A DNA stretch of 64,000 bases from an uncultured Gemmatimonadales bacterium (GTDB lineage: Bacteria > Gemmatimonadota > Gemmatimonadetes > Gemmatimonadales > GWC2-71-9): positions 347,067 to 411,066 of the forward strand of contig CAVPLK010000006.1 in the NCBI GenBank assembly GCA_963705985.1, read 5' to 3'. Position numbers and translations under genes: made by a program. Under the pieces are notes generated by a model, which was given only the letters and a program-made list of their open reading frames with translations, did no database searches and had not been told where the DNA came from. Within the stretch, counting starts at the first letter, position 1, and every line of letters begins with the position of its first letter. Positions 389 to 62,482 of this stretch are shown here, piece after piece.

Positions 389-2847
389 ATGCGCTTCCGT
401 TCCGCCGTCACGGCGCTTTCGACCGGCCTGCTGCTCTGTGCCACTCCGCTCGTTGCCCAGCTCGGGCCGCCATCGACTGGCGGCGCGGTGGCGGCGGAGC
501 ACGCGCGCCGGATGCTGGGCCATGACAAGCGGGTCCTGGTCATCGGGGCGCATCCGGACGACGAAGACACCGACCTCATTACCGTGCTGGCCCGTGGCGA
601 GGGGGCGGTCACGGCCTATCTGTCCCTCAACCGCGGGGAGGGGGGGCAGAACCTCATTGGTCCGGAACTGGGCGAGGCGCTCGGACTCCTGCGCACCGAG
701 GAACTCCTCAGCGCCCGCACCCTCGACGGCGGGCGCCAGTACTTCACCCGGGCCTACGACTTCGGCTACTCCAAGGGCCTCGAGGACACCTGGGCCCACT
801 GGCCGAGGGACTCCATCCTGAAGGACGTGGTGCGGGTCATCCGCGCATTCCAGCCGCAGATCATCGTGTCGGTCTTCAGTGGGACCGCGGAAGACGGCCA
901 CGGCCAGCACCAGGCGGCGGGGTGGGCGGCGCACACCGCCTTCGACGCCGCCGCCGACCCGACGCGTTTTCCGGAACTGGCGACGGAGGAACGGCTCCAG
1001 CCGTGGCGGGTGGAGAAGCTCTATCGCGCGACACGATTCACGCCGGCTCCGGTGATGGATACTATCCAGACCGGCGGGCTCGATCCGGCGGTCGGCCAGT
1101 CCTACCACCAGATCGCCATGGCCAGCCGCAGCCGGCACCGGTCCCAGGACATGGGCACGTTGCAGCGCCCGGGACCGGCCTCGACGCGGGTGGCGCTGGT
1201 CACGGACCGGACCGGCCGGGGAAGCGAGTTCTGGGCGGGGATCGATACCACGCTGCCGGCGGCCGAGCCTGCCGGACGGTCGGCGGCGTCGCGGGATCAG
1301 GAGGCCTTCCTCGCCATTGCCCGGGCCAATGAGCGAGGGATCATTCTCGACGCGGTGGCGAACTGCCGCCAACGTGATTGCGGGGCAACCGGTCGAAGTG
1401 ACCCTCTCGCTGTGGAATGCCGGGACAACGCCGGCACGCGCCCAGCTTGGCGTCACCGGGGCCACCGTGACTCGTCCGCCGCACGATGTGGTCGTGCTCC
1501 CCGGCGCAGATGGCGACCGTGACGGATACTTTCACTCTCCCGACCTCGGCAAGCACCGAACCCTACTTTCTGCGGCTGCCACGCGATGGTGCGATGTACC
1601 GGTGGGAAAGGTCGCCGATGGCAGGCCAGCCCGCATCCCTTCCCCTGCTGACCGCCAACGCCGTGCTCGACGACGGCCTCTCGATGACGCGCGAGGTGAC
1701 GTACCGCTGGGCCGACCCGGCGTTTGGCGAACGGCGGCAACGGCTGCTGGTGGTGCCGCGCGTCGGAGTCCGGCTGGACCGCGCCGTCGTCGTGTGGCCG
1801 CTCGCGTCGCGCGACGCCCGGACGATCAACGTCACGCTCCATCACGCCACGACCGACACCACCACGGGCGAGGTGCGGCTGGAGGTGCCCGCGGGGTGGG
1901 TGGCGCCGCCCCCGCAGCCATTCCGGCTGACGCGGAAGGGGGAGGAGGCCACGTTCCGCTTTGCGGTGACGCCTCCGGCGGCGCCGACGGCGGGGTCGTT
2001 CGAGATCCGCGCGCTCGCCGTGGCGTCCTCGGGTGAGCGCTACACCGAGTCAAGCGAGCTCATCGACTACCCGCACATCGCGCGGCGGGGGATGAGCCGT
2101 CCTGCCACGGGAACGATCCAGGTCATGGACATCGCGGTGCCGCCCTTGCGCGCGGTCGGCTACGTCCGCGGGGCGGCGGACGGAGTCCCCGAGGCGCTCG
2201 CCGGTCTTGGGATTCCCGTGGTCGAGTTGACGGCCGACTCGCTGGCGCGGGGCGACCTCTCCAAGTTCGACGCGGTGGTGATCGGCAGCCGGGCCTACGA
2301 GACGGTGCCGGCGGTCAGGGAGTTCAATGCGCGCCTGCTGGCGTATGCGCGGGCGGGCGGGCTCCTGATGGTGCAGTACCAGCAGTACGAGTTCTTCCGC
2401 GGTGGCTTCGCGCCCTTCCCGATGACCGTCGGCGGGGCGTCGCTGGCCTCCATGCTGGCGGGCAAGGCGCCGGAGCGGACGCCGGGCGATCGTCCCGACT
2501 CGCACGACCGGGTGACCGACGAGAATGCGCCGGTGCGGATCGTCGACCCCTCGAGCCGGGTGGTCAACGCGCCGAACGCGATCGGCTCCGCCGACTGGGA
2601 CGGCTGGGTGCAGGAGCGTGGATTGTACTTTGCCCGTGAGTGGGCGCCGGAGTATCGGCCCGCGCTCTCGATGAACGATCCAGGCGACCCCCCGCTGGAG
2701 GGGGGGCTCCTCGTCGCCCCGCTGGGACAGGGAACCTACGTCTATACCGGCATCGCCTTTTTCCGGGAACTCCCGGCGGGCGTCCCCGGCGCCTATCGGC
2801 TGTTCATGAACCTGCTGGCGCTGCGGCCGTCGGGGGCGATGCCGTGA
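389..2847 (+). pseudogene. large PIG-L/LmbE-family deacetylase with C-terminal ThuA/GATase1-like domain, interrupted by two frame changes
   Basis: The N-terminus has a signal peptide and the PIG-L motif VLVIGAHPDDED. The protein continues across three ORFs: 389..1522, then 1317..2036 (AANVIAGQPVEVTLSLWNAGTTPA), then 1486..2847 (ATVTDTFTLPTSASTEPYFLRLPRDG...). Frame switches are near 1366 and 1505. Confidence 0.7.
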
Positions 2848-3878
2848 TGGGGCGGCGGTGGATCCTCGCCGCGACGGCCGGAGTGCTGGCGTGCGGGGGT
2901 GACGCGCGCACGCCGGTGGTGGTGTATTCGCCGCACGGGCGGGATCAACTCCAGCTGCTTGAGAAGGCGTTCGAGCAGTGGCGGCCCGACATCGATATCA
3001 AGTGGCTCGACATGGGGAGCCAGGAGGTCCTCGATCGGCTGCGCTTCGAGAAGGTGAATCCCCAGGCCGACGTCTGGTTCGGCGGCCCGACGACCATCTT
3101 CGATCGGGGCGTCAGCGACTCCCTCCTCGCCCCCTACCGCCCGTCATGGGCCGGGTCGGTCGGGCCGGAGGGCGTCGGCCCGGCGTCGTTGTACTGGCCG
3201 GTGTATCGCACGCCGGTCATCATCGCCTTCAACAACAAGGCGGTCAGCGCCCCGGAGGCACCGCAGGATTGGGACGATATTCTCGCGCCGCGCTGGCGCG
3301 ACCTGGTGTTGATCCGCGACCCGATGGCGAGCGGGACCATGCGCGCCATCTGGGGGTACATCATCGAGCGCGGCCTCCGGGAAACAGGCGATACCACCGC
3401 TGGCATGGCCTGGCTCCGTGCGCTCGACCGCAACACCAAGACCTACGCCCTCAACCCGGCCATCCTCGACCAGAAGCTGGCGCGCGAGGAAGGCGTCGTC
3501 ACCCTCTGGGACCTCCCCGACATCCTGATCAGCAAGGGGAAGGGCATGCCATTCGGCTACCTCTTCCCGCGCAGCGGCACCGTCGTGATCGACGACGCCA
3601 TCGGCCTGGTGGCGGGGTCGCAGCACCCGGAGGCGGCGCAGGCGTTCATCGACTACGTGGGGGAGACGGAGGCGCTGCTGCTCGCGGCGCGCCAGGTGTA
3701 CCGACTTCCCGCCCGGCGGGACCTGCCCCTTGATTCGCTGCCCGAGTGGGTGGCGGAGGTGGAGCGCACCATGAAGGTGGTGCCGATGGACTGGACACTC
3801 CTGGCGCGCGAGGGGGCGGGGTGGATGAGCTATTGGGATCAGCATGTGCGCGGGACGGGGAAGGACCTGAGGGACTGA
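2847..3878 (+). CDS. ABC transporter substrate-binding protein (Fe(III)/family-1 solute-binding type)
   Basis: MGRRWILAATAGVLACGG lipoprotein-like signal. Family-1 solute-binding-like sequence. The ATG overlaps the upstream stop (TGATG). It is followed by ABC ATPase and permease genes. Confidence 0.8.
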   Translation: MGRRWILAATAGVLACGGDARTPVVVYSPHGRDQLQLLEKAFEQWRPDIDIKWLDMGSQEVLDRLRFEKVNPQADVWFGGPTTIFDRGVSDSLLAPYRPSWAGSVGPEGVGPASLYWPVYRTPVIIAFNNKAVSAPEAPQDWDDILAPRWRDLVLIRDPMASGTMRAIWGYIIERGLRETGDTTAGMAWLRALDRNTKTYALNPAILDQKLAREEGVVTLWDLPDILISKGKGMPFGYLFPRSGTVVIDDAIGLVAGSQHPEAAQAFIDYVGETEALLLAARQVYRLPARRDLPLDSLPEWVAEVERTMKVVPMDWTLLAREGAGWMSYWDQHVRGTGKDLRD

Positions 3879-3901
3879 GGACTGCGGGCAAAGGAGTGTG
3901 A

Positions 3902-4951: not shown

Positions 4952-6606
4952 CCCCGGCCCGCCGTGCGGGGTGGGCGGGCTGGCTGCTGGTGGCGGTGCT
5001 GGCCTGGCTCGTCGCCTATCCGCTCGTCCTGGTGCTCCTCGAGGGGGTACGGGGCTCCACCGGATGGACCCTCGACGAGGTGCGCCGCTTCGCCAGCCGG
5101 CCGACCGAGTGGCAGGCGCTCTGGGCGAGTCTCTGGCTCTCGATGGCCAGCGTCGTGCTGGCCGGCGCCATCGGCGTGCCGCTCGCCTTCCTCTTCGAGC
5201 GGGTGGATTTTCCCGGCCGCAAGCTGCTGGGCATGCTCGTCGCGCTGCCGGCGGTGCTGCCGCCGCTGGTCGGCGTCGTGGCGTTCCTGTTTCTCTATGG
5301 TGAGACCGGGTTCATCGGTCGGTTCGTGCAGTACCTGCTGGGGCTCGAGAACCCGCCGTGGCGCCTCGCGGGGCCCGGCGCGATCCTGCTGGTGCACGCC
5401 TACTCGATGTACGTGTACTTCTACCTCTTCTGCCGCGCGGCGCTCTCGCGTCTCGACGGCGCGATGCTGGAGGCCGCCTCGGCGCTGGGCGCCGGCCGGT
5501 GGCGGACGCTGTTCCGCGTGGTCCTGCCCCACCTGCGGCCGGCCATCGCGGGCGCGGCCCTCCTGACCTTCATGACCTCGCTCGCCTCCTTCAGCGCGCC
5601 GTACATCTTCGGTGGAGGGTACCGGGTCATGACGACGCAAATCGTCTTCACCCGGCTCAACGGCGACGACCGCCTGGCCATGGTCGAGACCGCGGCGCTG
5701 ATGCTCCTCGCGCTCGGCGCCATGGCGCTCTTCCGGCGCGCCGATCCCGGGGGCTCGCTGGCCGGCGTGGGCAAGGGCACGGCGCCGTCGCTCGCCCGGG
5801 CCGGCAGCGCCCGGACCCGCGCGGGCATCGCGATCGCCGCCTGGGTGCTCGCCGCGCTCCTGTTGCTGCCGCACCTGACGCTCCTGCTGGTCTCGTTCGT
5901 CCCGGTCGGCACCTGGACCACGGAACCGTGGCCTCCGGTGTTCTCCCCCGGCAATTACGCCGCGCTCTTCTCGGAACCGGAACGCTTCCGGCCGCTCTTC
6001 AACAGTCTCTGGATGGCCACCGCCGCCACGGTGGCCGCCGTCGGGATCGCGCTGGCCGCGGGGTCGCTGGTCGTCCGCCGTCGTGTGTCGGCCGGCCGGC
6101 TGATCGAAGGGCTCCTCGGCCTGCCATGGGCGGTGCCCGGGACGGTGTTCGCGATCGCGCTGGCGGCGCTTTTCAGCGTGGATTCGCCCCTGACGCTGCG
6201 GGCGGTCCTGGTGGGCACCATCTGGATTCTTCCGCTCGCGTACCTGGTACGAAACCTCCCCATCGCCGGGCGAGCGGTGCTGGCCGGCTTCCGGCAGCTC
6301 GACGCCTCGCTGGAGGAAGCGGCCGCCTCGCTGGGCGCCGGCCGCCTGCGCACCCTCCGCCGGGTCATCCTGCCGGGCTTGGCACCTGCGCTCGCGGCCG
6401 GTGCCACCCTGGCCTTCGTCACGTCGCTCGGGGACTTCGTGACCTCCATCATGCTCTACACGTACGACACCCGGCCGATCTCGCTCGAGATCCTCGGCAG
6501 CCTCCGGCAGGGCGACATGGGCGTCGCCGCCGCGTACGGGGTGTTGCTGATGATCGCGAGCGCGGCGGTCTTTGCCCTGGGCGCGCGCGGGGAGGCACGG
6601 ACATGA
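4948..6606 (+). CDS. iron(III)-type ABC transporter permease (two fused permease domains)
   Basis: 552-aa polytopic protein with duplicated permease domains. It overlaps the ATPase stop by 4 nt. Confidence 0.85.
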   Translation: MTPARRAGWAGWLLVAVLAWLVAYPLVLVLLEGVRGSTGWTLDEVRRFASRPTEWQALWASLWLSMASVVLAGAIGVPLAFLFERVDFPGRKLLGMLVALPAVLPPLVGVVAFLFLYGETGFIGRFVQYLLGLENPPWRLAGPGAILLVHAYSMYVYFYLFCRAALSRLDGAMLEAASALGAGRWRTLFRVVLPHLRPAIAGAALLTFMTSLASFSAPYIFGGGYRVMTTQIVFTRLNGDDRLAMVETAALMLLALGAMALFRRADPGGSLAGVGKGTAPSLARAGSARTRAGIAIAAWVLAALLLLPHLTLLLVSFVPVGTWTTEPWPPVFSPGNYAALFSEPERFRPLFNSLWMATAATVAAVGIALAAGSLVVRRRVSAGRLIEGLLGLPWAVPGTVFAIALAALFSVDSPLTLRAVLVGTIWILPLAYLVRNLPIAGRAVLAGFRQLDASLEEAAASLGAGRLRTLRRVILPGLAPALAAGATLAFVTSLGDFVTSIMLYTYDTRPISLEILGSLRQGDMGVAAAYGVLLMIASAAVFALGARGEART

Positions 6607-7817
6607 GCACAGCCGCCTCGCCCCCGCTCGACCAGTCCGACCTCCGCAAGCTGCTCGTGCTGATCGCCGCGAGCGCGGTGGACATGATCGGTTTCGCGAT
6701 CGTCCTGCCGCTGCTGCCCTTCTATGCCGAGAATCTCCACGCCAGCTACGCGACGATCGGGTGGATCATCGCGTCGTTCTCGATCGCGCAGCTGATTGCG
6801 GCGCCGCTCTGGGGCCGGGTGTCGGACCGCTACGGCCGGCGCCCGGCGCTGCTCATCGGTCTCTCCGCGTCGGCGGTGGCCTATGTCGCCTTCGGCCTGG
6901 CCAACACCGTGGCCTGGCTCTTCCTCTCCCGGATCATCCAGGGGGCGGGCGGTGGCACGACGGGCGTGGCGCAGGCGTACGTGGCCGACTCCATCCCGGC
7001 GGCCGGCCGGGCCCGCGCGCTCGGCTGGCTCTCGGCGGCCACTTCGCTCGGGGTGATGATCGGTCCGGTGGTGGGCTCCCTCGCCGCTCACTGGGGGCGG
7101 GCGGCCCCGGGCTTCGTGGCCGCGGGACTCTGCGTCGCAAACGTCATCTTCGCCTGGAAGTATCTGCCGGAGAGCCGCCGGCCCGGGGCGCACGCCCCGG
7201 CGCGCAAGCCGGTGTGGCACGCGGCCTGGCAGGTCTTTCGTCAACCGGGCACGCCGGTCGCCCGGCTGGTCTGGATCTACGCGGTGGGCATGCTGGCCTT
7301 CACCTGCCTGACCAGCGTCCTGCCGCTCTTCCTCGGGGCCGAATACGGGGTGACGGAGAAGACGATCGGGTATTTCTTCCTCTACGTCGGCGCCCTGTCG
7401 CTGATCATGCGCTCGATCTTCCTCGGGCCGATCGTCGACCGGGTGGGGGAGGCCTGGGCGATGCGGATCGGCGGCGGATGCCTGGTCGTCGGTCTCCTGC
7501 TCTACCCCGCGGTGTCGACGCTCTGGGGGCTGGCGCTGATCATCCCCTTCGTGCCGGTCGGGACGGCGTTATTGTTCCCATCCACCACGGCGTTGATGTC
7601 GCGCGCCGCCGAGAAATCGGAGTTGGGCACGGTCATGGGATCGGCGCAGACCTTCGCGGGTATTGCGCGCGTCGTGGCTCCGATCCTGGCCACCCGCGCG
7701 TTCCAGGACTACGGGCACAACTGGCCCTTCTACATGGCGGCGGCCACGGTGGCCCTCGTCAGCATCCTGGCCTTCCGGCTCGGTCCGGTGGCCGAGCCCA
7801 ATCCAGCAGGCGCCTGA
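6603..7817 (+). CDS. MFS transporter (TetA-like efflux type)
   Basis: The internal start MSTAASPPLDQSD overlaps the permease stop (ATGA). MFS motif GRVSDRYGRRP. About 12 hydrophobic segments. Confidence 0.8.
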   Translation: MSTAASPPLDQSDLRKLLVLIAASAVDMIGFAIVLPLLPFYAENLHASYATIGWIIASFSIAQLIAAPLWGRVSDRYGRRPALLIGLSASAVAYVAFGLANTVAWLFLSRIIQGAGGGTTGVAQAYVADSIPAAGRARALGWLSAATSLGVMIGPVVGSLAAHWGRAAPGFVAAGLCVANVIFAWKYLPESRRPGAHAPARKPVWHAAWQVFRQPGTPVARLVWIYAVGMLAFTCLTSVLPLFLGAEYGVTEKTIGYFFLYVGALSLIMRSIFLGPIVDRVGEAWAMRIGGGCLVVGLLLYPAVSTLWGLALIIPFVPVGTALLFPSTTALMSRAAEKSELGTVMGSAQTFAGIARVVAPILATRAFQDYGHNWPFYMAAATVALVSILAFRLGPVAEPNPAGA

Positions 7818-9932: not shown

Positions 9933-10142
9933 CTAGACCTTGGTGACGTTCTCGGCCGCGGGGCCCTTGGCGCCCTGGACAATGTCGAACTCGACCTTGT
10001 CGCCTTCGGCGAGGCTGCGGAAACCCTCAGCCGAAATGGCCGTGTGGTGGACGAAGCAGTCCTTCTCGCCGCTCTCGGGGGTGATGAATCCAAATCCCTT
10101 CGCGTCGTTGAACCACTTCACGGTGCCGGTTGTACGTGCCAT
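9933..10142 (-). CDS. cold-shock protein (CspA family)
   Basis: [36 protein letters not shown] contains RNP1/RNP2-like motifs. The upstream 33 codons of the tracked ORF were judged to be 5' UTR. Confidence 0.9.
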
Positions 10143-13917: not shown

Positions 13918-13980
13918 GCTGAATTATACCGGGAGTCCGCTCGGGCCGCCAAGGCGAGGGGCCGCGGGCTCCCTCAGGTG

Positions 13981-18582: not shown

Positions 18583-18690
18583 GAACGGAGATCTCCTTGA
18601 CTCGGAGGGGAGTGCCCACAACGGCATGGCGCTTTCTCAGGGGGCGGCGGCACCGTATCTTACGCCGAAACCCACGCTGGGAGATACCAC

Positions 18691-20588
18691 GTGACGCGCC
18701 ATCTCGCCAGAGCCGTGCTGCTTTCCCTCGTGAGCGCCTCCGGCCTCGCCGCCCAGGGGTGGCAGCTCTCCCCCTTCCGTCCCCTCGACTTGCCGGGTCC
18801 CAACGAATACCGGGCCGCAAGCGGTCGGCCGGGGCATGCCTACTGGCAGCAGGGCGTGGACTACCGGATCGACGCCACGCTCGATCCGGTGGCCAACGAA
18901 CTCCGCGGCCGGGAGGTGATCAGCTACCACAATCGATCGCCCGACGAGCTCCCCTACCTCTGGATGCACCTGGAGCAGAACATGTGCGCCGCGGGGAGCG
19001 TCACCTCCCAGCTCGACCAGCCGCCGCTCGTGTTCCTCGGTTCCTCATTCGACTTCTCGTGCCAGGGGTTCGCCGGCGGATTCATCCTCGATACGGTGCT
19101 GGTGGGCGGCCGGCCGGTCACCCCGGCGGTGTACGGCACCACGATGCGGCTCGACCTGGCCACGCCGCTGGCGGCCGGAGCGAGCCTCGAGATCGTGATC
19201 CGCTGGCGTTTCAAGGTGCCCGCCTTCGGCGGCGGCCGGATGGGGCACGACGGCACCCTCTACGAGGTGGCCCAGTGGTATCCCCGGCTGGCGGTGTACG
19301 ACGACCTCCGGGGCTGGAACCACGACCCCTACATCGGCGCGGGGGAGTTCTACCTGGAGTACGGCCGGTTCGACGTGGCGCTCACCGTGCCCGTCGAACT
19401 ACATCGTGGCGGCCACGGGCACGTTGCAGAATCCCGAGCGAGGTGTTGTCGCAGGCGCAGCGGGAGCGATTGAAGCGCGCCGCCGGCTCAACCTCACCCG
19501 TGGCGGTCATCACGCGCGAGGAGGCAATGCATCCGCCGCGGCTCGAGGCCTCGCGCGCCGCCACCCTCACCTGGCGCTTCACCGCCGACAGCGTGCGCGA
19601 TTTCGCCTTCGCGGCCAGCCCCGACTTCCAGTGGGACGCGAGCGCGTGGGAGGGCGTGATGATCCACACCCTCTACCGCCCCTCCGCGACCCTCTGGGCC
19701 GAGGCGAACAAGATCACCAACGAGGCGCTGGCGTTCTACAGCCAGCAGTGGCTGCGGTATCCCTATCCGCACTTCACCAGCATCGAGGGCCCGATCGAGG
19801 GGATGGAATACCCGATGATCACCTTCGACCCCACCGGACCGAACCGTGAGGATGTGCACTGGGTGCTGGCGCATGAGCTCGGTCACCAGTGGGTGCCGAT
19901 GGTCGTCGGCTCCAACGAGCGGCTCTATCCCTGGATGGACGAAGGGTTCAACACCTTCATCGACCTCGCCAACGCGGCGCGGTACTTCAAGGGCACCGCC
20001 TACGGCGACTCGATCGAGGTCCACCCGTTGCACCTGTACCCCGATCACGCGGGGCCCGACGAGCAGCCGCTCGGCCTGCGTCCCGTCGAGGTGCACGACC
20101 TCTTCTGGGCGGGGTACCAGAAGCCGGCGCTGATGCTGCAGCTGCTCCGCTACGAGGTGCTGGGGCCGGCGCGGTTCGACGCGGCCTTCCGCCAGTACCT
20201 GGCGGCGTGGGCGTTCCGGCACCCGTCGCCCGCCGACTTCTTCCGCCTGATGCGCGACGCCTCGGGAATGGACCTCGACTGGTTCTGGCGGGAGTGGGTC
20301 CGGACCACGACCCGGCTCGACCAGGCGGTCGAGGGCATCGTGGCCGCGCCCTCCGGCGTCACCGACGTGACGCTCGCGAGCCTCGGCACGATGGTCATGC
20401 CGGCGGAGCTGAAGCTCACCTTTGCCGACGGCTCCACCGAGGTGGTCCGCCTGCCGGTGGAGATGTGGAACCTGGGGCCGACATTCACCTATCGGGTTCG
20501 GGGCAAGCCCGGCGTCAGGAGCGCCGAGCTTGATCCGCGGCAGGCGCTGCCCGATGTCGACCGCGCCAACAACAGGTACCCGCGGTGA
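18691..20588 (+). pseudogene. M1-family metallopeptidase (aminopeptidase N-like) with two frame changes
   Basis: N-terminus in ORF 18691..19473. A short middle piece YIVAATGTLQNPE lies in the frame of ORF 19406. The remainder is in ORF 18597..20588, with HELGHQW and WMDEGF motifs. Apparent extra bases near 19393 and 19439. Confidence 0.75.
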
Positions 20589-21008: not shown

Positions 21009-22132
21009 CTAGCCGGCCCGTGGCGGGAGCTGCTGCCCCGCCTGCCGCACCAGCAGCACATCCTTCACGTTGTCAGCGGTCAGGAGGCCGACCAGCGCCC
21101 CCCGGTCGTCCACGACGGGGAGCGCCGGCAGCCCGCTCTGGACCAGCCGTTCGATCGCCGCCTCGAAGGGGAGCTCGACGGGGACCGACGCGAAGCCGGT
21201 GCTCATGGCCCGTTCGACGGTGGCGCCGACGCCCAGTTGCGAGAGTCCCCGGATGAGTCCGTCGCGCGTCAGGAGTCCCTCCACCTTTCCCCAGTTGTCC
21301 ATGATCGGGAATTCGCTCTGTTCCCCGGCGAGAAGCGCGTCCACCGCCTGCTGCAGGGTGGCGTACACCGGCAGCGCGACGAACTGGGTGATCATCAACT
21401 CCCGAACCGTCAGCCCTCGGCCCGCCGTCCGCGTCTCCACCGCCGCCCCCTCGGCGCCGGCGGCGAGGTAGACGAAGACCGCGATGAGCACCAGCACGAT
21501 GTTCGGGCCGTACCCCCAGCGCGAGAAGAACCCCAGCCCCCAGAGCCCGAGCCCAATGGCGCCGAGCTGCCCCACGCGGGCGGCCAGACGCGTGGCCCGC
21601 TGCAGGCCCATGCGCATGGCGAGGAGCGCGCGGAGCATCCGGCCGCCGTCCATCGGGAAGATCGGGAGGAGGTTGAAGAGGAGGAGGGCCACGTTGATCC
21701 ACATGATCTGCTGGGCGAGCCCGGACTGCGACGGGTCCAACTGGGCGGAATCGAGTGGGCGCCCCCATCCACCGGAGAGCGCCGAAGAGCGGCGAGCGCG
21801 ATGGCGAGGGTGACGGCCGGGCCGGCGGCGGCGATGAGCAGCTCCTGCCGCGGCTCCTCGGGCATCCGCTCGAGGCGTGCGAGGCCGCCGATGGGGAGGA
21901 GAATGACGTCGGGGGTCCGGATGCCGTAGTGCCGCGCCATCAGGATGTGGCCGAACTCGTGGAGCAGGACGCAGGCAAAGAGGGCGAGGAGGAAGGCCAC
22001 CGCCTGCACCGCCGCAGCCTGCCCCCCATCGGTGTAGGCGGAGTACCCCCACCATGCCACGAGGGCGAGGAAAGTGACGTGCAATTTGATGTCGGTGCCG
22101 CCGACCCGGCCGATCCGGAACGACCACTGCAT
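21009..22132 (-). pseudogene. M50 site-2 protease with C-terminal CBS pair, one frame change
   Basis: The N-terminal part (ORF 21410..22132) carries HEFGH. The C-terminal part (ORF 21009..22163) carries NLLPIFPMDGGR and two CBS-like repeats. They join near 21775-21795. Confidence 0.75.
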
Positions 22133-24209
22133 GCCTGCTCCCAGGGTTCAGAAGACCACGCAATCTCGCCCGGTTGGCGCCCCGGCGCGAGGCGGCGGGA
22201 AACTCGCGGGGCGCCGGTTCTTTCGGGGCGAGGTCGTGGGCGTTAACATTGAGGCCGATTCTTCAGCAGGAGTACCGCGATTACGACCGCTACGCCGCCG
22301 ACCACCGCGCCGGCCACCTGGACGCCCCGGGACGCCGAGAAGCTCTACAACATGCCGGGCTGGGGCCTGGGCTTCTTCCGCATCAACGCCGACGGCCACG
22401 TCACCGTGCACCCCGACGGCGACCCCGCGCGACGGCCTCGACCTCTACCAGCTGGCCATGGACCTGCAGGCGCAGGGCGTCGGCCTGCCGCTGCTGCTCC
22501 GCTTCTCCGACATCCTCCGCTCGCGCATCGCGACGCTGGCCGAGGTGTTCAGCAAGGCCATCGGGGAGTTCGGGTACGAGGGGCGTACACCACCGTCTAC
22601 CCGATCAAGGTCAACCAGCAGCGCCACGTCGTGCGAGGAGATCGTCGAGTTCGGCGCCGCCCACGGCGTCGGGCTCGAGTGCGGCAGCAAGCCGGAGCTG
22701 CAGGCGGTGCTCGGCCTGCACGAGAGCACCGACCACCTCATCGTCTGCAACGGCTACAAGGACGAGGAGTTCATGCGGCTGGCCCTCATGGGCCAGAAGC
22801 TCGGCCACCAGGTGTTCATCGTGCTCGAGCAGCTCAGCGAGCTGGACGTGCTGCTGACGGTGGCGCGACGAGATGGGGGTCACGCCCACGCTGGGCGTGC
22901 GCATCAAGCTGGCCACCGAGGGGTCGGGGCGCTGGGCGAAGAGCGGCGGCGAGAAGTCGCAAGTTCGGCCTCAGCGCCGTCGAGCTGATGCGCCTGCTCG
23001 ACCAAGCTCGACCGGCTCGGGCGGAAGGACATCCTCCAGCTGGTCCACTTCCACCTCGGCAGCCAGATCACCGACATCCGCTACATCAAGGCGGGGCTGG
23101 AGGAGATCGCGCCGCTTCTACGTCGAGCTCCGCGCGCATGGGCGTCGACATCACGCACGTGGACGTCGGCGGCGGGCTCGGCGTGGACTACGACGGCTCG
23201 CGCTCGACCCGGCCCGCCAGCGTCAACTACACGCATGCGGGAGTACGCCAACGACGTCGTGTACACCATCGGCGAGGCCTGCCGCGAGCGGGAGCTGCCG
23301 ATGCCCCACCTGATCTCGCGAGTCGGGGCGGGCGCTCACCGCGCACCACGCCCTGCTGCTGGTGAACGTGATCGACGTCGAGTCGCCAGGTGCGAGCCGG
23401 TCCCGCCGGTCCTGGCGAGAGGACGCCGCACCCGCTGCTGCGCGAGATGGCCGAGAACCTCGACGGCCTCGACGCATGCGAGCGGCTCGATGAGGTCTTC
23501 CACGACGCGATCTTCGCCAAGGAGCGCGCCCAGCGAGCTACTTCACCAGCGGCGTGCTTCACGCTGCGCGACCAGGCCGACGCCGAGCAGCTCTACCTCT
23601 GCACGCATCAACGCGCCATGCAGCAGCTCGCTGCGGCGACGACCGGACGTCCTATCCCGAGATCACGGCCGCACATCGAGGCGACCCTGGTGGACCGGTA
23701 CTTCTGCAACTTCTCGCTCTTCCAGTCGCTGCCCGACAACTGGGCCATCGACCAGCTCTTCCCGATCATGCCGATCCACCGGCTCGACGAGGAGCCGACG
23801 CGGCGCGGCACGCTGCAGGACATCACCTGCGATTCCGACGGCAAGATCGACCGGTTCGCCGGCGGGCCGCAAGGGGAAGCCGTCGCCTGGAGCTGCACGC
23901 CGTGTCGCCGACGGCGAGCCGTACATCCTCGGCATCTTCCTCACCGGCGCGTACCAGGAGATCCTCGGCGACCTGCACAACCTCTTCGGCGACACCAACG
24001 CGGTGCACGTCCGGCCTGACGCCCCAGGGGTACGAGGTGACCGACCTGGTGCACGGCGACACCGTCACCGAGGTGCTCAACTACGTGCAGTTCCACGCCT
24101 CCGACCTGCTGGCGACGTTCCGCCGCAAGGTGACCGCGGCCCGGGATCTCTCCCGGGACGAGGCGAACACGTTCATCGCGGATTACGTGGCGGGACTCGA
24201 GGGGTACAC

Positions 24210-25550
<1,341 letters not shown>

Positions 25551-25643
25551 AGCGCGTTCCTTGATCGTGGGAAGGTGTTGCGGTGACGAGTGGAAAATAG
25601 CCGGAAGGCGGGCCGGGGCAAAGCCGGTTACGTTTGTGCGCCA

Positions 25644-26550
25644 ATGCCTTCCGCCTCCCTCACCGTCGCCGAGCGCGCCCGGGGCGCCCTCCTCGGGCAC
25701 GCCGCGGGGAACGCACTCGGCGTGCCCACGGAGTTCCTCGGGCGGCCCGAGGCGATTCTCGCGGAGTTCCCCGGCGGCGTGCGCGACATTCATCCGGCGC
25801 GACACTCCCGCCAGTCCCTTCGACGATGACGTCGCGATGGCGCTGCTCCTCGCCGAGGAACTCCTCACGGGCGACGTGGACCTCGAACGCCTCGCCCACC
25901 GCTGGATCCACTGGCTCGATGCCGATGGCCGGGGGGCTGGGAACTGGACCCGCACGGCGCTGAACCACATTCGCACCCACGGCAGCCCCCCATCGAGTAC
26001 CGGCGGGCGGGCCCCGAACGGGGCCGTCATGCGCGCCTTGCCGGTCGCCCTCGCCACCCGGGGGTCGCCGACCAACCTCGTGGCGGGCACCTGGCACACG
26101 GCGGCCCTCACCCATCCGGACGACCGCTGTACCTGGAGCGCCGTGGCGGTCAACGTAGCGGCGGCGGAGTTGCTCGCCGGACGGCGGGACTTCCTGGCCG
26201 ACGTGATCGAGGTGCTCCGGGTCAACCAGGCGCCGCCTGAACTGCTGGCCGCCGTCCGGCGCGTGCCGCTCGAGCGCCGGGAGGACCTTCCCCTCCTCGG
26301 CGATCGGGCGTGGGACGCGGTGAGTTGTGTGGAAATTGCGCTGTGGGCCGCCTGGCACGAACCGAACCTCGAGTCCGCACTGATCTGGCTCGTGAACGCC
26401 GGCGGCGACACCGACACCAACGCGGCAGTGGCCGGTGGGCTCCTTGGCGCCCGGGACGGCGAGGGGGCCATCCCCGAACGATGGCTCGCGGCGCTCCCCG
26501 AGGTGGACCGGCTTCGCGAAATTGCGACTCGGCTGGTCGGGGAAGCCTGA
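25644..26550 (+). pseudogene. ADP-ribosylglycohydrolase family protein, one frame change
   Basis: N-terminus MPSASLTVAERARGALLGHAAGNALGVPTEF lies in the frame of ORF 25590. The remainder (FDDDVAMALLLAEEL...GGDTDTNAAVAGGLLGA) lies in ORF 25507..26550. The switch is near 25793-25800. Confidence 0.75.
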
Positions 26551-28212: not shown

Positions 28213-28333
28213 CATTCCCTCCCCGTTCATCGCCACGGTCGCGGAGGTGGCGGGGGTGGATCCTGTGAGGCCGGCTCCCGGCCAGCCCCGGGGTGTGCAG
28301 CGGTGTTCATCGTGTCGCTCCTTCGGCTGTGGA

Positions 28334-28579
28334 TCAGCTTGCGGTGTGAGTTTCGAGGTAGTGCACTCGCGCTTCCAGATCCCGGCACTTGATCGCCATG
28401 AGGCCGCCCCACGCCTCCATCGCCCGCATCCATTCCGTCAATCCCGCCGTGCTCCCGGGGTCGGTCGGTGCGATATGCCACGGCGAATCGCCAACCCAAG
28501 TCCAGGTCCAGTCCTTTGGGTCGGGGCCCTTCGTCATGTCCGGGGTCCATCCCGGGTGCTCGCCTGTCGTGGTACTCAT
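28334..28579 (-). CDS. hypothetical small Trp-rich protein
   Basis: 81-aa ORF with GGAGGGG 2 nt upstream of the ATG. It lies 26 nt downstream of the kinase gene on the same strand. Confidence 0.5.
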   Translation of the reverse strand: MSTTTGEHPGWTPDMTKGPDPKDWTWTWVGDSPWHIAPTDPGSTAGLTEWMRAMEAWGGLMAIKCRDLEARVHYLETHTAS

Positions 28580-28605
28580 GTCCCCTCCATTGGTGGGTGA
28601 GAGTG

Positions 28606-31395
28606 TCAGGGTCGCTGTGTGGAGGTGGCTGCCGAGAGCGCCGCCAGGCGGCGGCGGCTCTCGCGCGCGAGTTGCTGATCGCCGATCTGGTCCGCCGCCG
28701 CGGCGCGGATCGACAGGCTCATCGGCAGGAACACGATGTCGGTCACCACCGCCGGGGCGTCCACGATGCTCGCCGCCTGAATGGCGTCGTAGGGTTTGTG
28801 GCGGGCCAGATACAGCTGGGCCAGGAGGATGCGGTCGGCCACCAGCGATTCCCAGGGTTCATAGGGAATCTGGTCCCTGTGGGCCACCGGAGCGTTGGAG
28901 GCCAGGAGGGTCATTGCGCCGACGGTGTCCGCGCGCGCCAGGAGCAGGCGAGCCCACAGGCTGCGCGTGAGCGGCGCCGACGTGCCCCGCCGTCCGAGGG
29001 CCTCCGCATGCAGTCGCTCGGCGGTCGGCAGGTCCCCTCGCCGGGCCGCCCAGATGCCGGCAAGCCACACCGAGCCGTCGCTCACGTCGCGCGGCCGCTC
29101 GGCCATCAGGGCATCGACGTTGGCAGCGAACGCCGTTGCCACGGCGGCGTCGGACGCGCCCGCGACGGCGTCCAGGGTGAGGAAGAGCCCCTTGGCCATG
29201 AGCGCAAACATCGAGTCGGATCCGACGACCCGGCGCGCGCCCGCCGCATTCCCCCGGGCCGTCAGGATCCCCTGCAGCGCGCTCAACGCGGCAAACCGAT
29301 AGGCGTCCGGCGCATCGGCTGTCCCCAAGGCCTCGGCGGCCCCCTGAGCGCACTCCGGCTGGCGAAGCCCGCCGCCGACGAGGACTTGCAGGGCGTTGTA
29401 CACGGCCATCGGGTCGTGCTTGGCCGCGGCCAGCCATGCTGATGGCTCGGTTTCGTTGAGCGCGCAGGTGGTGGCCAGCCGCAGGAAGGCCACTTCCCCC
29501 TCGTCGGGGTGCTGGCGGGCGAACTCGGCGAGGAGTTGCACCGCCGCGCTGTCCCGCTGTCGAAACGCGGCCTCGATCAGGTGGGGAAGCGCCGGGGCAA
29601 AGCCGGGATCGAGCCGATGCGCCTGGGCAAAGGCGTCCTGGGCCAGGGAATCGATCGAGCCGGCGCGCGGGAGGAGATGCGCGTAGACCTCACCGAGCGC
29701 CATCCAGCCGTCCACCGAAGCGGGGTCGCGGTCGAGCGCGGCCGTCAGCCAGGCCACGGCGGTGTCGGCGTGTCCCTGCTGGTAGGCCAGCGCCCCATGC
29801 GCGAAGGCGGCGTACTTGGGAGGAAGCGAATCGAGGCGGTTGCCCATCGACTCGAGCAGCGCTGCTGCGTCGGTCGACTGATTCAGCCAGCTGGCGGCCT
29901 GGGCCGCGCGCAAGGATGCGTAGGTGAAGAGGGAGTCGCTGGCCAATGCCGAGCGGTAGTGAGCCAGTGCCTCGACGAACGATGCCCGGTGATAACTGTC
30001 CTCTCCAAAGTAGAACTCAGCCAATGCCGCAGGCGTCCTCCCTTCGAGCAGGGGGAGGGGCACGTCGGCTGACGAGGTGCGGAGCAGCCGTCCGATCAGC
30101 CGCGTGGCGGCTTCCTGCCCAACGGCCCAGGTGGCGGCGTCCAGCGGCTTCGCGATGATCGGCACCGCGGCGTTCAGTCCGTCGGGGGTCCGGATGGCCA
30201 GCGTGAGCCGCAAGGAGTCTCCGCCGAGCACCGATCCTTCCACCCAGCGGAGCAGTCTCGCGGCCCGGGCGGCCTGCTCCGGGGTCTTGCCCGCTGGGAC
30301 GGCGAACTCGACCGCGCTGATGAAGCCGCTGGAGTTGAGCGCTGCCACCAACGCGCCGGCAATCTGAGTGGCACGCGCCGAATCGGCACTGTCGGCCGGG
30401 GTGGCGGTCACGAACACGCCGACCCGATCGGCGACCATCGCGGTCCGTTTCGGTTGGTACAACGCCCAGACGACCAGTGCGCCCAGCAGGAGCCCGCCGA
30501 CAGCAAACAATCCGCGCCAGCTGCGGCGTCGGGCGGGGAGCACAGCGGTCGGGAACGGGGTCGAGGCCGTCTGCAGCGCGCGGGCCACCTCCTCGGCGCC
30601 GGCCGGCCGGTCCGCCGGGAGCTTTCGGAGCAGGCGGTGGACGAGATCGGCGAGCGCCGCCGGGACGGCCTCACGCAGCACGGTGATCGGGGTGGGCGTG
30701 TCGTGGCTCTGGCGGGCCATGATGGCCTGTGCGCTGCCGCCGGAGAAGGGCGGCTCGCCGCCGAGCATCTCGTAGAGCACGGTGCCCAGCGCGTAGAGGT
30801 CGCTGCGGGCGTCGAGAACGGCTGCCCCGCTTGCCTGCTCGGGGCTCATGTACAGCGGCGTCCCCACGACCAGTCCGCTGGTCGTGATCACGTCACTCGC
30901 AGTGGCATGGATGGCGCGGGCGATGCCGAAGTCGGCGACGCGCGCCTCGCCGCCCTCGAGCAGGATGTTCTCAGGCTTGATGTCGCGGTGAATGATCCCT
31001 TGCCCGTGCGCATAGGCCAGGGCGGACGCCACGTCCCGCGCGATCTTGACGGCTTCCTCGATGGGGATCGGGCGCTCACGAGTGAGCCGCTCGCGCAACG
31101 ATTCCCCGGTCACGTAGGGCATCACGAAGAAGACCAGCTCGTCGGCGACGCCGGAATCGAAGAGCGGAAGAATGTGGGGGTGGGAGAGCCGCGCCGCGAC
31201 CGAGATTTCCCGTTCGAAGCGTTCCGGCCCGAGCGCGGCCAGCACGGCGGGCCGGATGACCTTGACCGCGACCTGGCGGCCGTGCCGGGGGTCGTCGGCG
31301 AGGTACACCACTGCCATCCCGCCGTGCCCCAGCTCACGGTGGATGGTGTAGCGACCGGCAAGCGCTGCGCTGACGCGGGCGAGCAAATCCGCCAC
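28606..31395 (-). CDS. Ser/Thr protein kinase with one TM segment and a large TPR-like extracytoplasmic region
   Basis: GHGGMAVVY, VAVKVI, HRDIKPENILL, DFGIA, SPEQ. A hydrophobic segment (LFAVGGLLLGALVVWALY) follows, then a helical repeat region. 929 aa and intact. Confidence 0.9.
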   Translation of the reverse strand: MADLLARVSAALAGRYTIHRELGHGGMAVVYLADDPRHGRQVAVKVIRPAVLAALGPERFEREISVAARLSHPHILPLFDSGVADELVFFVMPYVTGESLRERLTRERPIPIEEAVKIARDVASALAYAHGQGIIHRDIKPENILLEGGEARVADFGIARAIHATASDVITTSGLVVGTPLYMSPEQASGAAVLDARSDLYALGTVLYEMLGGEPPFSGGSAQAIMARQSHDTPTPITVLREAVPAALADLVHRLLRKLPADRPAGAEEVARALQTASTPFPTAVLPARRRSWRGLFAVGGLLLGALVVWALYQPKRTAMVADRVGVFVTATPADSADSARATQIAGALVAALNSSGFISAVEFAVPAGKTPEQAARAARLLRWVEGSVLGGDSLRLTLAIRTPDGLNAAVPIIAKPLDAATWAVGQEAATRLIGRLLRTSSADVPLPLLEGRTPAALAEFYFGEDSYHRASFVEALAHYRSALASDSLFTYASLRAAQAASWLNQSTDAAALLESMGNRLDSLPPKYAAFAHGALAYQQGHADTAVAWLTAALDRDPASVDGWMALGEVYAHLLPRAGSIDSLAQDAFAQAHRLDPGFAPALPHLIEAAFRQRDSAAVQLLAEFARQHPDEGEVAFLRLATTCALNETEPSAWLAAAKHDPMAVYNALQVLVGGGLRQPECAQGAAEALGTADAPDAYRFAALSALQGILTARGNAAGARRVVGSDSMFALMAKGLFLTLDAVAGASDAAVATAFAANVDALMAERPRDVSDGSVWLAGIWAARRGDLPTAERLHAEALGRRGTSAPLTRSLWARLLLARADTVGAMTLLASNAPVAHRDQIPYEPWESLVADRILLAQLYLARHKPYDAIQAASIVDAPAVVTDIVFLPMSLSIRAAAADQIGDQQLARESRRRLAALSAATSTQRP

Positions 31396-31468
31396 GGACC
31401 GCTCCTGTAGCCGACCGGGGCAACCTACCCGGGTCGGCTGAAAGTGCCAGAGGAGCGGCGGGGGGGGA

Positions 31469-31864
31469 CTAGGCGGTGGGCGTCGGCAAGGTCACGCTGC
31501 AGGTGGTCAGGAACCCACCGCGGACGTTGTAGATCGTCTCGACCGTAAGCGACTCGGGCGTGAGCACCTGGTACAGGTCCTCGGCGATCTTCGCCGTGGC
31601 GTGCTCCTGGTAGATGCCCACGCTGCGGTAGCTGGTGACGTAGTACTTGAGGCTCTTGAGCTCGATGCAGGAGCCGTTCGGCACGTACCGGACGGTCAGC
31701 GTGGCGAAGTCGGGGAGCCCGCTGTAGGGGCAGACGGCGCTGAACTCGTCGGTGGTGGTGACGATTTCCTGCGCGGGCCCGTCGTACGGGAAGGTCTCCA
31801 GCACGGCGACGTCCACCTGCTCGGGGCCGGTGAAGGGGAGGGAGCGGCCTTCGGGAGTCGGCAT
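31469..31864 (-). CDS. queF: NADPH-dependent 7-cyano-7-deazaguanine reductase (unimodular type)
   Basis: EFSAVCPYSGLPDFATLTVRY and GIYQEHA motifs. The start MPTPEG lies immediately after the upstream stop. Confidence 0.85.
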   Translation of the reverse strand: MPTPEGRSLPFTGPEQVDVAVLETFPYDGPAQEIVTTTDEFSAVCPYSGLPDFATLTVRYVPNGSCIELKSLKYYVTSYRSVGIYQEHATAKIAEDLYQVLTPESLTVETIYNVRGGFLTTCSVTLPTPTA

Positions 31865-45517: not shown

Positions 45518-46853
<1,336 letters not shown>

Positions 46854-57060: not shown

Positions 57061-57121
57061 CGGTCACCTCGGCTCCTCCCGCCCGACACCTCCACCTGCG
57101 TCCCACGCCCACGCACCCGAC

Positions 57122-57188: not shown

Positions 57189-57203
57189 TGGTGGCCAGCG
57201 TCG

Positions 57204-57259: not shown

Positions 57260-57343
57260 CCGGCAATCCGGCGCATTGAGTTTCTGTAATCCGGGCGGTA
57301 TGTTCTGCCACCCCACTTTCGTCTCCCAAACCGGAGTCGTCCA

Positions 57344-59751: not shown

Positions 59752-59817
59752 CTCTTCCCGCTTGACGCCGCCCGGGGGAGTGCCGTTAGTTCAGGCACTC
59801 CTTTCCGGGTCGGCACC

Positions 59818-60276
59818 GTGCAGTACACCCTCCGCATCAACGGCATCTCCACCGACGTGGACGTCGATCCCGACACGCCCCTCCTCTGGGTGTTGCGGGA
59901 CCATCTCCACCTGACCGGCACCAAGTTCGGGTGCGGCGTCGGGCAGTGTGGCGCCTGCACCGTGCACCTTGACGGGGAGGCCACCCGCTCCTGCCAGTGG
60001 ATCGTCCGCGACATCGGGTCGAGACGGATCACGACCATCGAGGGGCTCTCCGATGACGGGAGTCACCCGGTCCAGCAGGCGTGGCTGCGGGAACAGGTTC
60101 CGCAGTGCGGGTATTGCCAGGTCGGGCAGATCATGTCGGCATCCGCGCTGCTCGCCGCCACGCCCCATCCCACCGACAGCGACATCGACACCGCCATGGC
60201 CGGGAATATCTGCCGGTGCGGCACCTACGAGCGGATTCGGCGGGCCATCCACCGCGCCGCGGGAGACGCAGCGTGA
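59818..60276 (+). CDS. (2Fe-2S)-binding small subunit of an IorAB / aldehyde oxidoreductase-type molybdoenzyme
   Basis: [11 protein letters not shown] and CGYCQ...CRCGTY cluster motifs. GTG start. Confidence 0.85.
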
Positions 60277-62482
60277 GTGGCCGGGCAGGTGTTACCCGGC
60301 GGGATTTCGTGAAAGCGGCTGCGGCCGCCGGCACGGGGTTGACCCTGGCCGTCTACTTCCAGGGGTGTGGCAACGGGGCGCCCGCGGCGCCGGAGGGCGT
60401 GTTCGCCCCCGACGCCTTCCTGCGACTCGCTCCCGACGGCACGGTGACGGTGGTGATCGGCCGATCGGAAATGGGGCAGGGCCCGACGACCGGCCTGGCC
60501 ATGGTGCTCGCGGAGGAGCTCGATTGCGACTGGAGCCGAGTCGGGTTTGTGCAGGGTCCAGCCGCGAAGGCCTATCTACAACCCGGCGATGCAGGCCCAG
60601 GTGACCGGTGGGAGCACCAGCATCCGGACGGGGTGGCTCCCGATGCGCGAGGCGGGTGCCACCGCGCGTGCGATGCTGGTCGCGGCCGCGGCCGGGCGGT
60701 GGGGAATTCCCGCGGCCTCCTGCAGCACCGCGGCCGGCCGGGTCCACAACGACGTCACGGGCGAGGAACTCGAGTACGGCGCGCTGGTGGCGGAGGCCAG
60801 TGCGCTGCCGCTCCCGAAGGATGTGCCACTCAAGGATCCGAAGGAGTTCCGGATCATCGGCACGTCGCGGGACCGGCTCGACAACCCGGACAAGGTGCGC
60901 GGGGTGGCGACCTTCGGGATCGACGTCCGGCTGCCGCGGATGGCATACGCGTCTGTCGAGCGGTGCCCCGTGGCGGGGGGGCAGGTAGGCGGGGTGGCAG
61001 GGGAGGCAGAGGCGTTGGCGACCACGGGTGTGCTGAGGGTGGTCCGGCTGAAGGATCGGGTCGCCGTGGTCGCGGAGCATTACTGGCAGGCGGTGAAGGG
61101 AAGGCGCGCGCTCGACATCACCTGGGACGAGGGCGCCGGGGCGCGAACTCTCCAGTGCCCGGATCGCCGAGCAACTGCAGTCGCTGCTGGTGTCGGACAA
61201 GGCGCGGGTGGCGCGCGAGGTGGGCGATGCGGAGGGCCTGCTCGCGCAGAGCCACAGTACGATTCACGCGAGCTATGAGGCGCCCTACCTGGCCCACGCC
61301 ACGATGGAACCGCAGAACTGCACCGCCTGGGTGCACGACGGCCAGGTGGAGGTCTGGGCGCCGACCCAGTTCCAGATGGGCCCCGGATTTCTCAACAAGG
61401 GGGGAGCGCGCGGGGTGGCGGCGGACGCCGCCGGCGTGTCGACGGACGACGTCACCATCAACACCACCTTCCTGGGCGGCGGCTTCGGCCGGCGGCTGGA
61501 GGTGGACTATGTGACTGAGGCGGTCCAGGTCGCAGCGCAGCTCGATCGACCGGTCCAGGTCATCTGGAGCCGGGAAGACGACACCCGGCACGACTTCTAT
61601 CGGCCAACGACCGCGCACGCCCTCTCGGCGGTGCTGGGGCCGGACGGCATGCCGCAGGCCTGGCGGCAGCGCATCGCCTGCCAGTCGATCATCCGGAACT
61701 GGGTGCCGGGGTGGGTGCCCGACTTCGCGATGAGCCTGACCGGCGCGCTCGAGCACGGCGTGGACCCCTCTGCGGTGGAGGGGTCGGCCGACCTCCCCTA
61801 TGCGGTGCCGAACATCCTGGTCGACTGGCGGGAACTCACGCTGCCGGTGCCCGTGGGCTTCTGGCGCTCGGTGGGCCACTCCCAGAATTCCTTCGTGACC
61901 GAGAGCTTCGTCGACGAGCTCGCGGCGGCGGCGGGGCAGGATGCTGTGGCCTACCGCCGGGCGCTGCTCAAGGACGAGCCGCGCATGCTGGCGGTGCTCG
62001 AGCTGGCAGCCACGAGGGCGGAGTGGGGCAGCCCGGTCCCCGCCGGACGGGCGCGGGGCGTGGCGATCGTGCGTTCCTTCGGCAGCATCGTGGCGGAGGT
62101 CGCGGAGGTGTCGGTCTCACCGGCGGGGGTCATCCAGGTGCACCGGGTGACGTGCGCGGTGGATTGCGGCACGCCGGTCAACCCGGGGCTGATCACGGCA
62201 CAGATGCAGGGTGGAGTCGTCTTCGGGCTTACCGCCGCACTGCATGGGGAGATCACCATCGCCAAGGGGCGGGTGCTGCAGAGCAACTTCTATGATTACG
62301 AAATGGTGCGGATGCCGGAGGCGCCGGTGGTCGCGGTGCACATCGTGCCGAGCGCGGAGCCGCCGGGTGGGGTGGGGGAACCGGGTGTGCCACCGATCGC
62401 GCCGGCGGTGGCGAATGCGGTGTTCGCATTGACGGGGGAGCGGCTGCGACGGTTGCCGCTGCGCCCTGGAGCTCGTGGCTGA
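60273..62482 (+). pseudogene. molybdopterin-dependent oxidoreductase large subunit (IorB-like), two frame changes
   Basis: Tat signal TRRDFVKAAAAAG (frame of ORF 60081), then ORF 60547..61278 (IYNPAMQAQVTGGSTSIRTGW), then ORF 61190..62482 (AHATMEPQNCTA...GGGFGRR...EPGVPPIAPAV). Switches near 60568-60575 and 61140-61147. Confidence 0.8.

Follow-up and report, generated by a model that had tools for sequence, protein, structure and literature searches.

Residual indels in metagenome-assembled genomes built from long reads give rise to false pseudogenes, and more so at low coverage (PMC8103633). The raw error of PacBio CLR reads is given as about 8% insertions versus 3% deletions (10.1101/2021.08.23.457338, the proovframe preprint), and a passage of PMC9262707 describes the classical residual error of Nanopore data as an error of homopolymer length. 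Genes can also be interrupted for biological reasons. In reductive evolution, as in bacteria that have recently become restricted to a host, many conserved genes are cut by frameshifts, and in programmed +1 frameshifting of the prfB/RF2 type one extra base is offset by a +1 shift, in a slippery or stop context that is kept in orthologues. Gene decay in bacteria is biased toward deletion, as reportedly described by Mira, Ochman and Moran in 2001.

The stretch of DNA analysed here, called hereafter the window, is 64,000 nt long and identical to positions 347067-411066 of contig C6 in a deposited genome (G000; 6 contigs, 2.89 Mb, 68% GC). It resembles long-read assembly errors in that private single-base indels fragment conserved genes, with an excess of insertions as in PacBio CLR data; such errors are commoner under poor coverage or polishing, and they inflate pseudogene counts while completeness remains high (95.7% for this genome). 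Unlike in Nanopore errors, 80% of the extra bases have no identical neighbour, and GCG and CGC are enriched. Unlike in the pseudogenes of reductive evolution, the indels have neither a deletion bias nor a homopolymer context, nonsense mutations and relaxed selection are absent, single-copy core genes are among those broken, the events are patchy, and sister assemblies are affected at unrelated sites. Unlike in programmed frameshifting, neither a motif nor conservation of the sites is found. On these sequence comparisons, the frame disruptions are very probably errors of the assembly consensus and not mutations of the organism.

Frame-disrupted genes along the window

The comparison drew on five syntenic congeneric genomes, six genomes in all with that of the window (contig numbers: G000, 6; G001, 9; G002, 7; G005, 20; G008, 30; G003, 100). 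Searching the window by tblastn with the intact G008 and G003 orthologues spread each of eight genes (PIG-L, tandem kinase, M1, M50, speA, ADP-ribosylglycohydrolase, actC and IorB-like) over two to three reading frames. Extra bases were positioned on gene-level MAFFT alignments, with a precision of about 5 nt per junction, and domains were identified with Pfam. At each junction, the extra base is absent from all 4-7 congeners, which encode one uninterrupted protein. This privacy is judged by comparison between species: an exact look-up of the protein of one neighbouring gene gave no same-species match, the best hit among JGI metagenome contigs anchored on citrate synthase had 84% amino-acid identity, and the best hit to the C-terminal piece of the ADP-ribosylglycohydrolase had 93% identity.

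A first-pass annotation of the window had proposed that at least nine genes are frame-disrupted and had suggested a comparison with related genomes. Private extra bases were indeed found in these genes, citrate synthase was added to them, and the orthologues proved intact in all relatives. The numbers of changes proposed for the PIG-L, kinase, M1, ADP-ribosylglycohydrolase and IorB-like genes (two, one, two, one and two, respectively) agree with the MAFFT alignments. The PIG-L-domain gene (407-2844, + strand, PF02585) is thrown into three frames by extra bases at ~1364 and ~1508, and is uninterrupted in the relatives (811-813 aa). The tandem Ser/Thr kinase (12007-10246, - strand, 594-600 aa in the relatives), with PF00069 on both pieces, has one extra base at ~11093, in the second kinase domain and within its glycine-rich loop; removal of a single base restores GRGGFG, as had been reported. 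In the Peptidase_M1 gene (18685-20585, + strand, PF01433, 633 aa in G008), the extra bases lie at 19394-19397 and 19432-19439, some 40 nt from each other. The exact VPSNYIV and NPEEVL restorations that had been proposed are only one among several equivalent placements.

Three neighbouring genes share a dense patch, at 21.7-25.8 kb, which covers the M50 protease gene, speA and the tail of citrate synthase. Its left border is the Peptidase_M50+CBS site-2 protease gene (22135-21015, - strand, 374 aa in G008), with PF02163 split over both pieces; the alignment gives two insertions, at 21756 and 21790-21794, and not the single change first counted. The core of the patch is speA, encoding the biosynthetic arginine decarboxylase (~22300-24220, + strand; G008 orthologue of 645 aa with PF02784, PF17810 and PF17944). 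It contains about 25-30 insertion events between 22431 and 24013; a single 1-nt deletion, at 22584, and an excess of about 30 private substitutions come on top of them. In the citrate synthase gene (~24270-25550, - strand, PF00285), the body is clean and insertions at 24279-24313 turn the last 15 codons into a 43-residue out-of-frame tail; a further extra base, at 25563, is intergenic, in the 5' leader of the gene. Multi-base insertions are also present at 24230-24300, in the spacer that separates the convergent speA and citrate synthase genes, and some may be natural length variation instead of error.

The ADP-ribosylglycohydrolase gene (ADP_ribosyl_GH, 25659-26547, + strand, PF03747) is broken behind codon 44 by one extra base, at 25789. 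Its product is about 296-301 aa long in the relatives, and the ~40 closest database homologues are all intact, at about 301 aa. For actC, which encodes the NrfD-family membrane subunit of alternative complex III (ACIII; 45520-46851, + strand, 441 aa), the earlier estimate of one to two changes could be settled as two, at 45542 and 46152. They break the gene after codon 8 and at codon ~208, so that the N and C halves of PF03916 fall on separate pieces; the adjoining ACIII genes are intact. The gene for the IorB-like molybdopterin-binding subunit (MoCoBD, 60303-62464, + strand, PF20256/PF02738, 724 aa in G008) has extra bases at 60575 and ~61144. Besides the one at 25563, private intergenic extra bases were found at 13979, 33741 (between the genes for acyl-CoA dehydrogenase and TetR) and 41857; the last three show that coding sequence is not a specific target of the insertions.

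Direction, context and distribution of the extra bases

Relative to the five syntenic congeners, private extra bases in the window number about 50, as against a single private 1-nt deletion, the one at 22584. With this deletion counted apart, the frame-shifting events in the gene alignments amount to 38 insertions and no deletions, which bears out the proposed +1 offset of the downstream frame. Outside the 21.7-25.8 kb cluster, every one of the 13 events in coding sequence is a +1 insertion (sign test, p = 2e-4). When the validated private 1-nt indels of the window and of the region C3:520-540 kb are taken together, there are 54 insertions versus 4 deletions (p = 3e-12).

The homopolymer context that the first-pass annotation had proposed to test for turned out to be the reverse of the expected signature. 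The inserted base differs from both neighbours in 43 of 54 cases (80%, versus 0.54 in the background, p = 1e-4), homopolymer runs of at least 3 account for 7% of insertion sites versus 15% of the background, and the trinucleotides GCG and CGC are enriched at insertions (31% versus 8.3%, p = 9e-7). Given this avoidance of homopolymers, the extra bases are unlike natural slippage mutations, and the error is not of the classical homopolymer type either. Homopolymer-type error, as of Nanopore R9, 454 or Ion Torrent, was rejected because the extra bases avoid homopolymer runs. The missing homopolymer context fits poorly with the best-known error mode of Nanopore, 454 and Ion Torrent, as far as a passage of PMC9262707 describes it.

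Frame junctions were then counted over the whole genome with a Viterbi frame caller based on codon usage. It placed about 327 junctions, an approximate count, as the caller overlooks junctions when the low-scoring sequence between them exceeds 60 nt, and makes roughly one false call in every ~14; 246 were net +1 versus 81 +2 (p = 2e-20). In 5-kb bins the junctions were clustered, with a dispersion index of 2.97 (p = 7e-113), and 29 bins had at least four junctions versus 1.4 expected. Polishing failure dependent on GC content was considered and rejected, junction density and GC being uncorrelated (Spearman 0.06, p = 0.15). Alignment of a region predicted to be hot (C3:520-540 kb) revealed 21 private insertions, in agreement with the predicted junctions, and a region predicted to be clean (C3:780-800 kb) had no private insertions in coding sequence. 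Within the window, the background is about 1 extra base per 5 kb, and patches of 2-4 kb contain about 1-2% extra bases.

Sister assemblies were inspected in the same way. In the synteny block of the window, G001, G002 and G005 each have 5-8 private frame-changing insertions. In C3:780-800 kb, G001 has 42 private 1-nt insertions, 22 of them frame-changing, and in C3:520-540 kb, G005 has 27, of which 19 are frame-changing. The private insertion clusters of these three assemblies (7-20 contigs) are at other loci than those of G000. G008 and G003, with 30 and 100 contigs, have almost no private insertions; a private 1-nt deletion in coding sequence of G008, at window-equivalent position 7109, shows that these cleaner assemblies are not perfectly clean. 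Over the six genomes, with contig number as a proxy for technology, the error load appears to follow the assembly and not the lineage.

Biological and artificial alternatives

If the disruptions were the organism's own, they could reflect genuine and very recent pseudogenisation, with hundreds of real single-base insertions arising, for instance, in an insertion-biased hypermutator or through an extreme bottleneck. In that case speA, ACIII, the M50 protease and further functions would be missing from the organism. The extra bases do stand in the deposited sequence, and the genes that they break are real and otherwise conserved. However, other signs of gene decay were looked for and did not accompany them. 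Across ~19,500 aligned residues there was no genuine in-frame stop substitution: of two stops that had been flagged, one fell in a spurious antisense ORF and the other in an off-frame one. No larger deletions were found. Median Ka/Ks was unchanged: the broken pieces gave 0.11, and intact genes gave 0.09-0.10 (Mann-Whitney p = 0.47 and 0.59). The excess of ~54 insertions over 4 deletions also speaks against decay, as does their avoidance of homopolymers, in which natural slippage indels gather. The genes hit include core genes present only once, citrate synthase and speA among them, whose loss is implausible; this counts further against genuine pseudogenes. Finally, long clean stretches adjoin the 2-4 kb patches, in which extra bases make up about 1-2%, and like patches occur at other loci in the assemblies of independent species, among few-contig assemblies only. 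Pseudogenisation is thus considered very unlikely.

Second copies of the broken genes were also sought. None was found in the genome for PIG-L, M50, speA, citrate synthase, ADP-ribosylglycohydrolase or actC, and rescue by paralogues was therefore rejected for these six genes. M1 and the IorB-like subunit have distant paralogues, with 30-51% identity.

The extra bases might instead be real and be tolerated or corrected by the Gemmatimonadales of this genus, as a result of patchy insertion-biased mutation or of the removal of single nucleotides at the RNA level. The coding sequences of hundreds of genes would then contain +1 interruptions, a situation that we regard as highly improbable. Under recoding, the proteins would be made intact by way of programmed +1 frameshifting, four-base decoding, slippage during transcription or deletion editing of the RNA. 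Nearly all events are +1 and, beyond each junction, the orthologous protein is always resumed in the new frame, as recoding would have it, but inspection of the eight resolved junctions revealed no shared slippery motif or four-base word (TGCC, GGGC, GAAC, CTCG, ATTC, GTAT, TATC and CGAA, all different). Moreover, the sites are conserved in no congener, event positions differ among the few-contig assemblies, extra bases are equally found in the intergenic spacers, and speA alone would require about 30 events in 1.9 kb. Recoding is therefore hardly credible.

Deliberate alteration, with bases added to the record after assembly, had been put forward by the first-pass annotation as an engineered sequence, and the near-pure +1 pattern outside homopolymers does look artificial; it is nevertheless extremely unlikely, since the window is identical to the deposited genome of the species, the same kind of events extends in patches across 2.9 Mb and is seen in three other assemblies of the genus, and the GCG/CGC context bias and the excess mismatches of speA are expected of a noisy consensus and not of planted bases.

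Probable consensus error and its consequences for reading the genome

The reading that we prefer remains consensus error, and the technical origin that had been deduced from the insertion bias is now backed by the privacy of the events, the lack of nonsense codons, Ka/Ks, the affected core genes, the patchiness and the sister assemblies. The genome is a few-contig, metagenome-assembled Gemmatimonadales genome, most likely obtained from error-prone long reads, whose consensus would have kept spurious extra bases where depth or polishing fell short. The outcome would be a low background together with dense patches of 2-4 kb, such as the one at 21.7-25.8 kb. As to the platform, the insertion-dominated, non-homopolymer profile seems closer to raw error of the PacBio CLR type than to that of Nanopore. 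The patchiness may be due to locally low depth, to stretches left unpolished or to mixed strains.

The frame disruptions are thus judged to be no real biological feature, and are to be taken as a warning on data quality. The genome is a species representative, and its spurious frameshifts are put at some 300-450; roughly one in ten genes may therefore be split. Automated annotation will derive false pseudogenes, truncated proteins and missing pathways from it, and other odd findings in G000, G001, G002 and G005 should first be checked for this artefact. As for the organism itself, ACIII, arginine decarboxylase, citrate synthase, the M1 and M50 peptidases and the products of the other listed genes should be assumed to be working.

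Broken genes in the window

The window is identical to positions 347067-411066 of contig C6 of its genome (G000; 2.89 Mb, 6 contigs, 68% GC, completeness listed as 95.7%). The closest named database proteins come from Gemmatimonadales MAGs, and neither DNA nor protein of the same species turned up in the metagenome contigs and protein collection searched. The whole window is syntenic, at 77-90% identity, with five congeneric genomes (G005, G001, G008, G002 and G003), and two more match part of it only. The window was compared with its relatives by a 20-kb multiple alignment, by pairwise blastn with indel bookkeeping, and by tblastn of the relatives' ORFs against it. All three methods were concordant on the broken genes and confirmed the claim of the first-pass annotation that conserved genes are frame-disrupted. 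Each of these genes, as seen in the comparison with related genomes that the annotation had called for, is a single uninterrupted ORF in G008 and G003 and, in the window, is split across two or three frames. Gene-level MAFFT alignments placed an extra base private to the window at every junction. Pfam supported every gene identity; two pieces of a gene often carried half each of a single domain.

On the plus strand, extra bases were found in the PIG-L-domain gene (407-2844; at ~1364 and 1508), the M1 peptidase (18685-20585; ~19394-19397 and 19432-19439), the ADP-ribosylglycohydrolase (25659-26547; ~25789), actC (45520-46851; ~45542 and 46152) and the IorB-like subunit (60303-62464; ~60575 and 61144). 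The plus-strand arginine decarboxylase gene speA (~22300-24220) carries ~25-30 events between 22431 and 24013. On the minus strand are the tandem kinase (12007-10246; ~11093) and the M50/CBS protease (22135-21015; ~21756 and 21790-21794). All the genes listed by the first-pass annotation were thus broken; its list missed citrate synthase (sole copy in G000), where insertions at 24279-24313 replace the last 15 codons by an out-of-frame tail. Its counts need one correction, two events rather than one in the M50 gene; for actC, the true number is the upper of the one or two proposed. Intergenic extra bases occur at 13979, 25563, 33741 and 41857. No second copy of the PIG-L, M50, speA, citrate synthase, ADP-ribosylglycohydrolase or actC gene was found in G000. 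The alternative complex III genes neighbouring actC are intact.

Some other features were observed. The PIG-L-domain protein (811-813 aa in relatives) has its PIG-L domain only at residues ~44-178 and no Pfam match in its C-terminal 448 residues; it is a conserved fusion with a C-terminal part without assigned function. A Ser/Thr kinase gene of 920-929 aa (28636-31395, minus strand) encodes an N-terminal Pkinase domain followed by 650 aa without Pfam match. It lies in a segment (28219-31478) that G005, G001 and G008 lack at the syntenic site and that matches G002 at only 74% identity; from this comparison, the segment looks like a strain-variable insertion. Outside the window, tblastn with a kinase orthologue revealed an unusually large tandem array of kinase genes, with ~25 paralogous Ser/Thr kinase domains in ~80 kb (G000:C4:398000-476000), almost all of them minus-strand. 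The 67-aa cold-shock-domain gene at 9936-10136 (minus strand; PF00313) occurs in 3-4 copies, with nucleotide identities of 77-86%, in all genomes of the genus and of the order.

Spectrum and distribution of the extra bases

The gene alignments contained 38 frame-shifting insertion events versus 0 deletions. For single-base events in the window and in C3:520-540 kb, 54 insertions were counted versus 4 deletions (p = 3e-12); the only private 1-nt deletion in the window is at 22584, so that the proposed direction of the changes holds. The sites, for which a homopolymer-context test had been suggested, are not in homopolymers: 43 of the 54 inserted bases differed from both neighbours, versus 54% for background trinucleotides (p = 1e-4), and the insertion created GCG or CGC in 31% of cases versus 8.3% (p = 9e-7). 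Homopolymers are the preferred sites of natural slippage indels, and gene decay in bacteria is biased towards deletions. An insertion-biased spectrum outside homopolymers thus fits genuine mutation in neither respect.

High GC content leaves all six frames full of ORFs, and therefore a codon-usage model, trained on 478 long ORFs of G000, was used to drive a seven-state Viterbi frame caller. It detected ~327 same-strand frame junctions other than gene boundaries, with a net shift of +1 at 246 and +2 at 81. They were strongly clustered (dispersion index 2.97 in 5-kb bins, p = 7e-113), 29 bins having four or more junctions versus 1.4 expected, and no link between GC content and junction density was seen across G000. 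In a comparative check, the predicted hot patch C3:520-540 kb contained 21 private insertions and 3 deletions, matching predicted junctions almost one to one, and the predicted clean patch C3:780-800 kb had 0 coding events. The hot patch of the window spans 21.7-25.8 kb, the remainder having ~1 event per 5 kb.

Private events in sister assemblies

Private single-base events were tallied for each of the six genomes in turn. In the synteny block of the window, G002, G001 and G005 (7-20 contigs) had 5-8 private frame-changing insertions each, whereas the private single-base insertions of G008 (30 contigs) and G003 (100 contigs) were all non-coding. Two extra regions were inspected. Both contained dense patches: G001 had 42 private insertions in ~20 kb, precisely in the stretch that is clean in G000, and 27 were counted for G005 in ~20 kb of the other; over both, G008 had 0 frame-changing insertions and G003 one insertion and one deletion. 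Since the private insertion clusters differ by assembly and lie at unrelated sites, the defect tracks the assembly, not lineage or locus, in this small sample of six genomes, with contig number serving only as a proxy for sequencing technology. Independent origin in four species at unrelated sites would not be expected of real biology, and is predicted by consensus error.

Frame-changing private insertions were located at L020 and L133/L137 in G001, L002/L019 and L120/L125 in G005, and L005/L012/L022/L035 in G002. G008, although a cleaner assembly, still has an occasional frameshift: a private coding 1-nt deletion (G008:C11, window-equivalent 7109) leaves the orthologue of window gene 6594-7814 in two parts, 183 and 234 aa long.

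Origin of the extra bases

The frame disruptions are very probably a technical artefact, not a real biological feature; the spurious extra bases would be consensus errors of the G000 assembly. The technical origin already proposed is supported by the private insertions, their spectrum, the lack of other decay, the patchiness and the assembly-specific test. Genuine mass pseudogenisation is improbable and contradicts every indirect test. Besides the insertion-biased spectrum outside homopolymers, no real in-frame stop substitution was found in ~19,500 aligned residues, and Ka/Ks was unchanged (the median versus G008 or G005 was 0.11 in the broken pieces, as against 0.09-0.10 in neighbouring intact genes; Mann-Whitney p = 0.47 and 0.59). 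In speA, ~30 excess private substitutions accompany ~40-48 private inserted bases, and an indel to substitution ratio near one would fit a noisy consensus, not a decaying gene. A planted or engineered sequence, also raised by the first-pass annotation, is unlikely: the extra bases belong to the deposited genome and are spread throughout it, they are context-biased and accompanied by mismatches, and events of this kind are seen in sister assemblies. Read-through of the extra bases by programmed frameshifting or four-base decoding is excluded, as the junctions (TGCC, GGGC, GAAC, CTCG, ATTC, GTAT, TATC, CGAA) have no common motif, every orthologue lacks the extra base, and extra bases also occur in intergenic DNA.

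Consensus error has precedents. It is well documented that residual indels in long-read MAGs create false pseudogenes, the more so at low coverage (PMC8103633; PMC9262707). The insertion excess outside homopolymers in G000 is like the raw PacBio CLR error quoted in the proovframe preprint, ~8% insertions versus 3% deletions (10.1101/2021.08.23.457338), and less like the homopolymer error mode of Nanopore. This likeness suggests a PacBio CLR-like platform for G000.

If the disruptions were real, six single-copy genes would be hit, including speA, actC and citrate synthase. The artefact is a data-quality warning for G000, and likewise for G001, G002 and G005, and findings from these genomes need caution.
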